A DNA stretch of 64,000 nucleotides from Tubiluchus corallicola. Lineage: Eukaryota; Animalia; Priapulida. Shown here piece by piece: positions 44,432 through 50,400 of the stretch. The notes under the pieces were generated by a model, which was not told where the DNA came from, made no database searches, and worked only from the letters and a program-made list of their open reading frames with translations. The translations under genes and the position numbers were made by a program. The stretch is from assembly GCA_030141605.1 (NCBI GenBank), contig JAQGDQ010000107.1, positions 1-64,000 on the forward strand. The letters are read 5' to 3'. Position 1 is the stretch's first letter; each line of letters begins with the position of its first letter.

Positions 44432-47400
44432 TTAACTATGTGAACCTGATATGGAGTTATTTAGCCCACTGCTTGTAGCCGAGTTGTGTCCAATGTCCTT
44501 CCGTGGAGGCATTCGTTCATTAATTTTGTCTAAACCTTTAGCTTCTTGGAACCCGCTGATTTTATGATTAGGTGAAAAGCCAGAGATAGCTGCAACAAAG
44601 AGTTAAAGTGCACATTGTAATGTACACCTTTCTGTATACAAGTTCTACATTCAAATCATTTGCAAATTTATGTACTAATGTGGTGTACACCTTTCTGTAT
44701 ACAAGTTCTACATTCAAATCATTTGCAAATTTATGTACTAATGTAGTGCTGACCACCTGATCACCGATCAATGAAAGCACTAAGTCGAATGAACAAAGTT
44801 AAGGAGAGACACAGGTGCATTTATACTAATCACAGTGCACAAGCAAAAACAAACTGCAGCTGTAATGCAAGCTGATTTCTGGATTGTGTAAGCCAGGCTA
44901 CTACTCAATTGCAGTCAAGTAAGTTGATCAAGCCTAACATTGTTTTATGCCAAATGCAAGATTTGTAATACAAGCACTAGCTTGGCTTCTCTGAGTAAGC
45001 TAACCTCAGGCTAGCTCACTCTACTATTTCATCCAAATCCTTCTATTGTGAGGTGCTGAACTAGTAAAAGTGTTAAAATCGCTTCTGAACTGCCACTGTC
45101 AAGCCAGTATTATTGATATTTGACCAATTTATTGAGTGACAAAGGCTATTGAGTAACAAAGGCAAAAGAATAATACTTTTTAAAATGTTATATTAGAATA
45201 ATTTGCGATAACCGAAAATGCATGAAGGTATCTATTAGAAAACACAAAACATATGGCTAATTGCTCGTCATTGGTCCATTATAAAATGTAACGATCCTTA
45301 CGGAACAGCGAGTTTAAAATTCAACAAATAATGTCGATGTCACATACAGCTGTTATGGTTTTTCACGTGCTGAGCATTGTACACTTAAACTAGCACTGAA
45401 AATTGTTATTGATTTTTGTGGGCCAGAAAACAGTTGTCTCTTGGTGCTTCAACCAGCAGTAATCATTTCATAGGGTGCCATAAATATTAAATCAGCAAAC
45501 ACTAAGTTTACTATCTGCTGGGAATATGCAGATGCATGCAGGATAAAGCAGCAAAATAATTGCTGATTAAAACCCAGCCGATGGCAAGACTGAAGTAGTT
45601 TTGATGAGGATTTCGTTGTTGCATTCAGACGATTCCGTTTTAGGGCACCTCTAAAATGTCTACTAGTTTTTAAAAATGAAAGAGTACATTATAAACTGTT
45701 AAAATTTGTAACGCAAGTTTGTTAAAAAATTATTTAATACCCTGCCATACAAAGCTAAGTACTCAGTTCTTTATGCTAAAATTTTCTTTGTTAAACTGAA
45801 GAAATTGATTATTCGAACAGCAAAAAAAAAAACAACAGTCCAAAATGGCTTTTAAATATCTGTTGACGATACTACATGATGAACATGTTGCCTGCTAGTT
45901 GTTGTTGATGTGAATGAATGAAAGTTATAGACTGAAATAGCTGTGTGATATGGTGTGAAAACAACTGCATACTAAAGTACCACAGGAAACTTTTTGCAAT
46001 TTTAGGTATTTGATGAGTAATGAGTAAACTGCTGATCATTGGCAATAATTTTAACAAAAAGAAAGGTACATAACAGAGAAACAAAACTGACATAACAAAA
46101 ACAAAGTCAATCGCTTTGCATAATTGAAACTTACCTTCCAACTCTAGTGAAGCAGGAAGAAAAAAGAGTGAAAGTTGCATTACAAGAACACTAAAGGAAG
46201 TCGCAGAAAAAAGTACTTTGCAAGAAAACTATGTTTTCCTTTGATGGAATCGAATTTGCTACCGCATATTCGCAGAACAGAAGAACACTCGTTAAAAGAA
46301 AAAAGTTGTATAACTTGAATGCATAGTTACTAAAATATTTTGATAAACGTCGGGTACATACTTCTGTTCTCATATTACCGAAACAGCATTCTGTATCATT
46401 CACGTTGGCGTTAGTAACATATTTCTCCTAAAGTTTTAGAATTTACAGCAAATATTGTATTTTTTCATAGTGAAATCAAATAAAAAACGAAATATACAGT
46501 ACTAGTTACGTAAAAAAAGGCATTTACAGAATTGTTTAGTTTACAGGCGCATGATTTTGTTAAAAATGAAGACTCAGAATACATTATTCAGCATCCTATG
46601 ATTCCTCACTATCTTCAAGTCAGCCAAGTAGGCTAACTAGCAGAAAACCAAATTACCACTAAATCAAATAGAGAAAATGTGACAATGAAAATAACTTATG
46701 AACTGTGCACTTAACATTTGTGCTGGATGGCAATAATATCTCCGCCATCATGTAGTACTCACCTCCCTGCAAGCTCTGCTTTCCCCCTGACAAAGCACCC
46801 AGTGGTAGCAATCCTGTAGGTGTGAGACCCTTTAACTGCAGTACACTTTCGCTTTCTTCTCTGAAAAGAATTTCAAATATTCACCGCTTTAGTACAACGT
46901 AAAACCGCAGCAATAAAAATGCAGTAATAACAACAGGTACTTGTTCAAACCCTCTTTCATACTAGACTGCAAACTTTATAGACACTAATAAAGAAGAATC
47001 AATGAGGTCTTTCGATTAAAGCAAATGTGCCAATGAGATTACTAAAAATGTCTCTAGAATCTTAGTAGTAAATATCTGATGTTGCTGTTGTTTTCAACAT
47101 ATTACTCAACAATATAAGCAGCAAATTTTATATCTTCTGCATTTAGGCATCAAAATTTCAAAAGAATAATTGCATTATCTGTCAGATGTGATGTTTCATT
47201 GCTGCTTTGTTTAACTGAGACAGTAAGGAGGCACAATTATTGCAGTGAAATATGCTTACGCGTAACAAAGTTCGACTCATTTGCAAAGTTTGATTTCACT
47301 TGCAGTGCACTAAAACTAAACTACTGTGAGACTTATAGCAACATGCAAACAAGAATTAGTAAGGCTCACCTCAGAACGGAGAATACTCTTGCCATTTTAC

Positions 47401-50400
47401 CAATTGCCCGAATTTTATTTCTAATCACTTCTTTCCGTGCTGCTGCTGCAGCTCCCCCTGTTGGCAAATCAAGCAAGCAAATCATGCATGAGCGTGTTAG
47501 TAAGTTACTCGCACACAAAATATTAATAAAGGATTCAGACCACTACTGAAGCCGAAGTTTTCTAGTCTATAAATATGACAAATATTTATTAATATACAAG
47601 CAAAGGCATATCAAACTATAACTGATTAAGTTCTCCAAAAAAAGTATAACTGTAAAAAGAAAAATAATTAATAAAAAAAAACCAGTAACAAACAGTTGTT
47701 AAATTTTCGCTAGAGTTGCCAGATTATAAGCCAGGAATTTTTTTAACATTGTGAGTACATAAATTATGAGAGATATATGGCATATAAAGGGGCGCGTGCT
47801 GTCGAATCACTTAAACCAGTTCACAGCATAGTGGCGGCTTGTGTATAAGTATCGGAACTGCAGCACCCCCTATTTTCACTCAATATTATCGATAATATTC
47901 AATACAATAAGTCTTTTTTCTTTAGTTCTTTCTTTATACTTGTACGGAACCAGAGCACATGATTGTGCTGCACTGCTAGCATCTGCTGCTAGGTAGAGAA
48001 AGTACTGTCACTCACACAGTTGTCAGTTGTCACGTTCTTAAAAACCATGTACTGGCATATTCTTGAACTGCAGCAATTTAGGCTATTCGTAAGCAAAATT
48101 TTTTTCTTTTAGGATTTTATCAAGTTTACGTATGTTTTTGTATGCTTGTTTGTTTAAAATTACAATTACAAATTACAACATTAAAATTACATATGTTTTG
48201 TTTCATTTTGCATAGCATTAAAACAATGGCTAAAAATTTCCTGAAGCAGCACCCCACTTATTTTAGCTACAAGCCTCCACTGATACAGCATGACAAAACA
48301 GGTGAAAGAAACAGACGCTAAGATGTTACTGTAAGATATAAAAATCGAGATTTATCATTTCTAAACTTTGACTCCAGCATATTGCACTTAAGAAGGTCTC
48401 TAATTAATGTCAATTAGTAGTATGGGCGGCATTAGTGAAGTTAACCGTCTACATAGTACCGTATATACTTATGTACAAGTCGAATTTTTGGGAGGCGATT
48501 TTAAGGTGAAATTTTTCGGGTCGACTTATACTTAAGATAAGTTTTTGGGATATGTCGCTAAAGAGTCGTCTACAATACGAATATGTAAAGAAATAATCCT
48601 TCATTATACACTGGACTGAATGAACACTCATACTGTGATACTTCACATCAGAGAATGTTTGCATCTTACTTCACAAAATTAAGAAATATTACTGCAATTT
48701 ACTTTAATGTATGTGAAATTAAGTTAAAATTTATATATTACCGGCAAATGAACTAGCGACGGAGCACTCGATCAGTACATGTAAATATAGGAGCAAAAAC
48801 AATCTTCAGATTGATACTGACTGTTGAAAATCTAGCGTAAATATGCATAAACGGAATTGATATTTGAAAACTGAGATGTATTTCTATTCAAAAGATGTTA
48901 CTGAATAAAACTGTGCCGTTTCAGGTATGTGTTTTTAGTTTTAATTGAGAAATCAGCGACTGAAATGTTACGACGGATCCTGGGCTCGATATACTAGCGT
49001 TAAAGGCATTACAAACAATTATGCGTGATGAAAGGCCAGGCTGCATTATCATGGATTGCATTGATGGCCCTCAACATGAGTATATATATATATATATATA
49101 TATATATATATATACATCGGGTAGGTATAATATACTCGGCCCAGGCACTTGCACGTATCTTACACACTAACACAGTAGGCTATTGATTTATTACTCGGCC
49201 ATTGTTGACATCATTTACTCTGGAAGATCTTAATATTTTTGGGTGGACTTGTACACAGGTAATATACAAAATGATACAATTTTTGGTCTTCAAATGCACA
49301 TCGACTTGTACATAAGGTCGACTTGAACATAAGCATATACTGACAAAAAAAAAAACAGCAGGGCACCCAAATCAAAACATCACACAAGTCAGGAAATACG
49401 AACAGTGTTACGAAAAGTAACATTGCCATAAGTGCATATTCTCATTTTTTTAATAATATTCCAAACTGTTGATGGTCGTTGATAAATTTCAACACTAGTT
49501 TAAGGACTTAAACTGCCAAATCTGGCAACTCTAGAATAACAATATAAAATTCACACACACGCGCGCACGTGCACACGCACACCTACTCATACAACAAAAA
49601 AGCCAACGGGCTTTAAATAACAACAAAGGTAAAAAAGATCAATTCGTACTTTTTGCTCAAGTTCCTATTCTTTAACTGAATACAAAACCAGAATTTAAAA
49701 AAAAATGTTAGTCAGTCATATTTAATTATATGCAACAGCACAATTCATATTCAGCTCCACTTTGTTAATAATAAAGCGCATCATTCGCAGTTCTTATACC
49801 TAGGTCTTCATCTGATGCCGCAAGTCTTAGGTCTGAGCGAACACACACAGGCTGAATAAGTTTTAATTCTTTTATTAACTCATCGACATTTTTCCCTGTA
49901 AAGCAAAGTAATAAGGGGACCGTGAAATGAACACCGAGTGTAACTAGTAAGGGCATTTACTGAATCGTTGCTTCAATATCAAATCAGTAAGGCACTTATT
50001 AAAAAATAAGTTTAGTGCCCGGTTAGGTTTAAGAATTCTCTTCACTTCGGAAGCAAATACACTCTATTTAGAAACAATATAATGTTAGTATTAGCCGCAG
50101 GCATCTCTAATGCATTAGCACTTGCATCGACGACTAGGCACTCCATGCAATGCGGAGGTTTCCAGGGTGGTTCGCTTCTCCACTTACCGTAGGACATGAT
50201 ACATGCGTGCAATGCGGCCTATTGCACGTATTTTTGACCGTATAATTTGTTTTCGTTCAGCGGTAATGCCTGGTTTATTTGTTCCGACTGCAAAAAAGAA
50301 CTCAACAATAAATGGCTTGGTTTCCTACCTAGTCCGTTTCAACCCAGAATGTGAAAAATACATACATGTACCAGTAATCATTGTCAAAATTTTCTCCACA

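Follow-up and report, generated by a model that had tools for sequence, protein, structure and literature searches.

A second calmodulin-binding exon in the calcineurin A gene of the priapulid Tubiluchus corallicola, probably mutually exclusive with the canonical one

The calmodulin-binding domain (CBD) of calcineurin hardly varies in animals, and in the papers considered here splice variation affects the flanking linkers or the tail. A stretch of DNA from the priapulid Tubiluchus corallicola (GenBank assembly GCA_030141605.1, contig JAQGDQ010000107.1, positions 1 to 64,000 of the forward strand; these 64,000 nucleotides (nt) are called the window below) raises the question whether a calcineurin A gene can exchange the CBD itself. 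The gene lies on the minus strand, where nine exons with GT-AG borders throughout were mapped from 58257 to 44432 (Table 1). In tblastn comparisons the exons were collinear with the calcineurin A of Priapulus caudatus, and they encode the domain order of calcineurin A, that is PPP phosphatase, CnB-binding helix, CBD and autoinhibitory domain. The N-terminal part of the protein (~210 residues) was not found within the window, and exons upstream of 58118..58257 were not located. Two of the nine exons, the canonical exon A and a variant exon B, each encode a CBD.

Exon B is bordered by tttttttgcag and gtaagt and encodes (V)[32 protein letters not shown](R); exon A lies between ccaacag and gtgagc, and its translation is (G)[28 protein letters not shown](R). 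Both have a length of 3n+1 and run from phase 1 to phase 2, with 2,730 nt between them. A message that includes only one of the two, whether A or B, can be read in frame as far as the last exon. Inclusion of both leads to a stop 149 nt upstream of the last exon junction, and omission of both to a stop 69 nt upstream of it. The limit for nonsense-mediated decay (NMD) is about 50 nt, and the stops of both out-of-frame forms lie beyond it. A and B are tandem homologous exons of equal phase, either of which keeps the frame, as in a homologous mutually exclusive exon cluster. By a rough consensus scoring with an approximate donor matrix, the donor of exon B ranks at percentile 99.6 among the GT sites of the gene span (constitutive donors, 96.7-99.8) and its acceptor at percentile 97.3 among the AG sites (constitutive acceptors, 85.3-99.7); four constitutive borders entered this scoring one base out of place, although the donor 9-mers were correctly placed. 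There is also an in-frame internal CAG at 50270, 18 nt into exon B, which might give an 82-nt form, nearer the length of the P. caudatus variant described below; the site is likely weak because the tract upstream of it is purine-rich.

To what extent has exon B been kept for its protein product? Over the 23 codons from A391 to L413 (human numbering is used here and below) A and B differ at 30 of 69 nucleotides, of which 17 fall at third positions; the two exons share 14 residues, 10 of these through other codons. The proportion of differences is 0.85 at synonymous sites (pS) and 0.29 at nonsynonymous sites (pN), and in neutral simulations with 30 substitutions at least 14 residues were kept without a stop in 2 of 200,000 runs. 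Exon B is under protein-level selection, and the presence of an intact second CBD exon is confirmed, far beyond chance. The initial annotation had described this second exon, its strong splice sites and phases, the different codons behind its conserved residues, an old duplication kept by purifying selection and a geometry of mutual exclusion, and all of these are borne out by the frames, splice scores and codon comparison. A tblastn search of the window turned up neither a third copy of the CBD nor a second copy of any of the other calcineurin exons, and no Pfam family was found for exon B. That the second exon is an assembly artefact or a piece of a paralogue is scarcely credible: near-identical tandem duplicates do occur elsewhere in the window (98% over 9.3 kb), but A and B are only 57% identical at the DNA level, the other exons of the gene occur once and the swap recurs in a relative.

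In a comparison that covered 46740-47500, transcript evidence was found for the canonical form. A search of sequencing runs with 50130-50350 (18 sampled words) listed no RNA run that contains this stretch; one run, added by its species label, had a share of 0.00, and the blank counts neither for nor against expression. One 492-nt transcript-like contig splices A to e7 across a 509-nt GT-AG intron; it comes from one run with the same species label, presumed to be RNA, and shows 9 mismatches in 187 aligned letters. Its 15-nt loose end upstream of A is matched at 15 of 15 letters by the end of exon e5 followed by a 3-nt and a 6-nt exon, and 29 of 30 letters of its other loose end are matched by a 9-nt exon and the last exon, both fits having been made after the loose ends had been seen. 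The contig includes all three of these microexons, which are absent from the gene model of the initial annotation. A single 9-nt microexon in the linker LR1 was sought and not found, and resolved into the 3-nt and 6-nt exons. A 3-nt exon is near the smallest possible size, and such exons are often neural. Because both LR1 microexons lie upstream of B and join A, the contig skips B. A transcript with A included and B skipped is thus shown on one contig, in which the join upstream of A rests on the 15-nt loose end.

Is the exon pair also present in a relative? When the last exon was compared with 298 proteins, P. caudatus gave the best match. A tree with 42 rows was built from the C-terminal 266 residues, rows P0146 and P0114 being absent since their trimming motif was unmatched, and in it the window calcineurin A was sister to that of P. 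caudatus (support 99/94; 251 of 266 residues identical). The two animals are not near relatives: two hemichordate rows of the same tree are closer to each other. RefSeq holds three predicted calcineurin A isoforms of P. caudatus, among them X1 (XP_014677380.1) and X2 (XP_014677387.1), which have 495 residues each, 484 of them identical, and all differences fall within the segment that matches exons A and B. The longest contig given for every one of the three isoforms is 824,576 nt. In the relative, too, the same CBD segment is swapped within one gene model, as would be expected of a counterpart of the pair. Elsewhere in the P. caudatus sequences, R401L is found in the canonical exon, and the exon at the end of the catalytic domain is missing from isoform X3.

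The X2 segment, [23 protein letters not shown], resembles exon B where it departs from the common sequence. Exon B is off consensus at 8 of 23 positions (394, 395, 398, 405, 406, 409, 410 and 411) and X2 at five (394, 405, 409, 410 and 411), all of them among the eight of B (hypergeometric 0.0017, with positions treated as equal). Both have R405 and Y410, and both have lost Ser411. X2 differs from B in keeping N398 and M406, in having D394, I409 and N411, and in a shorter, unlike linker. Identities over 23 residues are 22 for A-X1, 18 for A-X2, 17 for B-X2, 15 for A-B and 14 for B-X1. Because X2 shares R405, Y410 and the loss of Ser411 with B, the CBD exon pair is likely old; one old duplication is the simplest reading of these sequences, and a shared origin of the variant exon in the two species is highly probable. 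The CBD exon would accordingly have been duplicated before T. corallicola and P. caudatus split. Separate duplications that converged, a rival that concerns the origin only, are unlikely. Just two informative residues are shared, both conservative, the linkers are unlike, and tandem CBD copies in a Logan contig (P0254, below) indicate that the exon can duplicate elsewhere; against this, the genes are sister in the tree, the changed positions overlap and the synonymous sites between A and B are near-saturated. The clean swap in X2 also bears on the idea of a poison exon, in which B would be spliced in next to A so as to disrupt the reading frame and trigger decay. The position of the B+A stop, 149 nt upstream of the last junction, would suit such a role, but a poison exon needs no selection at the protein level, yet B is selected, and this explanation is very improbable.

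What would the exchange do to the enzyme? In the complex with calmodulin the anchors are I396, I400, F410 and L413 and the basic residues R392, K393, R408 and R414, numbered within 391-414 (PMC6151454). By sequence comparison exon B keeps seven of these eight identical and changes F410 to Y, and the net charge from R392 to R414 is +7 and +8 in the two forms. Because the anchors and basic residues are kept and the charge is similar, calmodulin binding is predicted to persist with B, and the B isoform likely still binds calmodulin. The conserved change, and probably the selected difference, lies at 405-411 (K405R, V409M/I, F410Y and S411H/N), and V409 and F410, which belong to the segment ARVFSVLR, are altered in the variant exons of both species. 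The groove for this segment overlaps the LxVP site. ARVFSVLR docks in a groove at the CnA/CnB junction (PMC8470620), and CaMKII phosphorylation of Ser411 inhibits calcineurin (PMC11358029); passages of PMC12043318 were silent on Ser411. Exon A would give the canonical enzyme and exon B a variant without inhibitory Ser411 phosphorylation, which would escape CaMKII-type inhibition at 411 and whose autoinhibitory segment would dock differently on the CnA/CnB groove. Both isoforms retain the CaMK site ([11 protein letters not shown]) that has been studied in the worm. The initial annotation had proposed an altered Ca2+/calmodulin sensitivity, a proposal weakened in that the published anchors are kept and F410 changes only to Y, and an escape from both redox and phosphorylation control. 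The phosphorylation part holds in so far as Ser411 is lost in both variants. Oxidation of Met406 lowers calmodulin affinity (PMC2671406), but M406I is private to the T. corallicola exon B and X2 retains Met406; because Met406 is lost only there, redox escape is not a conserved point. As far as sequence comparison allows, a real regulatory difference centred on 405-411 is somewhat favoured.

To see how far the CBD varies elsewhere, 502 proteins were collected, of which 443 others had an alignable CBD; because this set was selected by similarity and contains redundancy, the residue counts apply to the sample only. F410 and M406 were found in 443/443, K405 in 437/443, Ser or Thr at 411 in 383/443 and Gln at 411 in 54/443. 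The view that the segment is nearly invariant in animals is sustained by F410, M406 and K405, and needs qualification at Ser411, which is less invariant. One lineage (P0142, P0144, P0433 and relatives), a group beside molluscs in the tree, has Gln411 and hence lacks the CaMKII site. The same counts bear on whether B was once functional and is now rarely used or decaying in T. corallicola. Exon B is off consensus at 8 of 23 positions against five for X2, and its M406I stands where all 443 others have Met; its frame is open, its splice sites have constitutive strength, pN is far below pS and all anchors are intact, which makes decay quite unlikely. Exon B is very likely a live alternative exon.

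Searches for further variants gave few candidates. Y410 was not seen among the best 120 of 402 scored matches (406 candidates; query, X2 residues 378-418), nor among 146 new matches examined, taken from the best 150 of 453 in a profile search of 1.84 billion representatives. Among the matches listed by the profile search, one has R405 (P0357) and one has two tandem CBD copies (P0254). The latter, from Logan (contigs up to 1,126 nt), is a genomic reading frame in which the CBD exon occurs twice in tandem, nearly identical and 22 codons apart; the duplication is likely young and independent, and belongs to another animal. Among the members of 30 clusters (at most 15 members each) a CBD swap was found only in P. 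caudatus, which does not show its absence in other phyla because clustering at 90% hides isoforms. Of 180 pattern matches in a scan of metagenomes, 4 were relatives, and a B-type exon was found in none; the ESM Atlas gave weak matches only (0.84-0.85), and a protein search with an exon B query that included nine intron codons, a weak query, gave no candidate. Four tick calcineurins (P0443, from UniRef, Amblyomma aureolatum; P0444-P0446, from Logan) were compared with equal-length gene models of three genera (P0434, P0435 and P0438). K405R was the sole difference in three of the four, and the fourth has K405R together with a second K to R change in the autoinhibitory domain. The pattern fits adenosine-to-inosine (A-to-I) recoding or a near-identical alternative exon, and it changes the same residue that exon B hard-wires.

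Taken as sequences, A and B are probably mutually exclusive exons, of which B would give an isoform without the Ser411 site but with calmodulin binding. Several observations weigh against this. The transcript evidence in T. corallicola is of the A form only, on one contig. X2 is a 'PREDICTED' model from automatic annotation and is slightly closer to A (18/23) than to B (17/23), the two variant exons have linker parts of unlike sequence and length, and the shared changes, K to R and F to Y, could hardly be more conservative and could arise twice. Gln replaces Ser411 in 54 of the 443 other CBDs, and because these are single-copy CBDs without Ser/Thr411, loss of the site is tolerated in a sole copy. 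R405 also occurs in three metagenome loci, which we take to be fungal from their appearance. The CBD of Leishmania carries R405, M409 and H411 (PMC8470620), and in Caenorhabditis elegans the expression pattern of calcineurin isoforms outweighed isoform sequence (Rudgalvyte and Glauser 2025, PMC12503234).

Several of these points are also those on which another reading draws, in which exon B is live and mutually exclusive with A but the enzymes made from the two differ little in their biochemistry, the pair being kept because each is needed in tissues of its own or for the linker length it sets. The calmodulin anchors and basic contacts are kept at a charge of +7 versus +8, R405, Q/H411 and M409 are found in ordinary single-copy calcineurins, tissue of expression outweighed sequence in the worm (PMC12503234), and LR1/LR2 length is a known splicing hotspot. 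Against it, two distant species are changed at the same five positions (394, 405, 409, 410 and 411) while their A exons are identical at 22 of 23, and four tick sequences show the K/R alternative at 405; we regard it as possible but distinctly less probable than an isoform pair that differs in regulation.

How might A and B come to exclude each other, if they do? There is no steric hindrance because the B-A intron measures 2,730 nt, which ruled out steric exclusion, and incompatibility of U2 and U12 sites was ruled out as well, all sites being GT-AG with U2-type donors. When RNA pairing was tested in 250-nt flanks, one region pair of 28 scored better than every one of its 20 shuffles, which is what chance would give, and the fold z-scores of the flanks were 0.59 and 0.11. 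A duplex in the A flank, as good as which were 0 of 20 and then 2 of 60 shuffles, was rejected as bulged and as one of 28 tests; inverted repeats in the B-A intron were likewise rejected, being TA runs or having one arm within the dispersed repeat at 47709..48190 (a 16-nt perfect inverted repeat). TGCATG occurs 3 times within 100 nt of A and B (expected 0.18) and once in the flanks of seven other exons, a motif chosen after it had been seen. In C. elegans, UGCAUG is present in 11 of 29 mutually exclusive clusters, and 14 of 19 clusters of non-3n exons rely on NMD (PMC4165533). In T. corallicola exclusivity may be brought about by splicing factors together with NMD of the out-of-frame forms, and the RBFOX-type UGCAUG beside both exons may make the choice dependent on tissue or stage.

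How does the exon pair compare with known calcineurin splicing? C. elegans tax-6 has a duplicated mutually exclusive pair, exons 13a and 13bc, which are neuron- and muscle-biased, as well as a 9-nt alternative exon 11 (PMC12503234). The tax-6 pair is the next exon (LR2, from EESESVL), with the CaMK site S443 in both forms and a constitutive CBD. In the window gene, by contrast, the CBD and the autoinhibitory segment are swapped and e7, the LR2 exon, is single; the gene does not belong to the tax-6 type. Mammalian PPP3CA, PPP3CB and PPP3CC have cassette exons 10a and 13 of 27-30 nt (Brinegar et al. 2017, PMC5577920), which resemble the window microexons in being small in-frame insertions immediately before the CBD and before the autoinhibitory domain; unlike in the window gene, the CBD itself is not exchanged. 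In CnA-beta1, autoinhibition is likewise changed by splicing (summarised in PMC12503234), but here the autoinhibitory domain and the tail are replaced, not the CBD, and without a duplicated exon. We found no description of a swapped calcineurin CBD in the literature searched (most subscription journals lay outside its scope), and none of the P. caudatus isoform swap, going by titles, abstract openings and selected passages. The arrangement is already in RefSeq as an unremarked predicted isoform, and a mutually exclusive pair of the next exon is published for C. elegans.

The pair offers a selected natural alternative in the form of a short substitution set (R405, M/I409, Y410, H/N411), which can be placed in the human enzyme in vitro and used to ask how CaMKII cross-talk, the autoinhibitory segment and the binding of calmodulin may be uncoupled from one another. 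Its interest is limited by a non-model host animal, by a mechanism class, duplicated mutually exclusive exons, that is common, and by the presence of the swap in RefSeq. A bolder idea, to which we attach only tentative belief, is that residues 405-411 are a hidden calcineurin tuning knob switched by RNA processing more than once, in priapulids through an old mutually exclusive exon whose enzyme would be insensitive to CaMKII and have a remodelled autoinhibitory segment, and in ticks through K405R recoding, probably by A-to-I editing. If this were true, the exon pair and the 3-, 6- and 9-nt microexons would let one gene give tissue-specific calcineurins with different calcium thresholds.

Table 1. 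Features of the calcineurin A gene and its introns in the window.
Feature	Position	Strand	Remark
Catalytic-domain exon (LDRFKEPP...CSYFYS)	58118..58257	-	first gene exon found in window
Constitutive exon (YAACCDFL...AQDAG)	57102..57179	-	
Constitutive exon (YRMYRK...YNNK)	55394..55488	-	
Constitutive exon (AAILKYENN...FVGEK)	54454..54579	-	presumably end of catalytic domain and start of CnB-binding helix
Exon e5 (TEMLVNVL...DDTFE), upstream common exon, end phase 1	53749..53826	-	last 7 nt within loose end of transcript contig
3-nt microexon, linker LR1, long pyrimidine tract, cag/.../gtaaga	52807..52809	-	
6-nt microexon, linker LR1, cag/.../gtgaga	52130..52135	-	
Exon B, variant calmodulin-binding / autoinhibitory-segment exon, 100 nt	50188..50287	-	similar segment in P. 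caudatus X2
TGCATG (RBFOX-type motif), 39 nt downstream of exon B	50144..50149	-	putative function
Dispersed repeat in B-A intron, 94-96% identical to pieces of 32595-33248	47709..48190	.	likely unrelated to exon switch
ACTAAC branch-point-like motif (-44) and TGCATG (-31), upstream of exon A	47483..47501	-	putative function
Exon A, canonical calmodulin-binding exon, 88 nt	47370..47457	-	spliced to e7 in transcript-like contig
ACTAAT (+10) and TGCATG (+23), downstream of exon A	47342..47360	-	putative function
Exon e7 (EESESVLQ...QSLQG), downstream common exon, linker LR2	46763..46860	-	homologous to exon duplicated in C. elegans tax-6
9-nt microexon, linker LR2, tag/.../gtaagt	46135..46143	-	
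Terminal coding exon, with the autoinhibitory domain ([17 protein letters not shown]), tail and stop	44432..44589	-	

Outside the calcineurin gene, a gene of the PhzC-PhzF family (PF02567) lies in tandem duplicated blocks in window 1-34700, with a period of ~14.4 kb. Positions 1-9283 and 14390-23702 are 98% identical, and a partial third copy is 93-96% identical; the blocks are either a true tandem array or uncollapsed haplotypes. A 379-codon open frame on the minus strand (38820-37684) carries a reverse transcriptase domain (PF00078), as in an element like a long interspersed nuclear element (LINE), and fragments related to this frame occur at 4697-5001 and 19084-19388. On the minus strand at 28932-28648 there is a weak THAP-domain match (E 0.00035, under the Pfam cut-off), possibly the remnant of a transposon.

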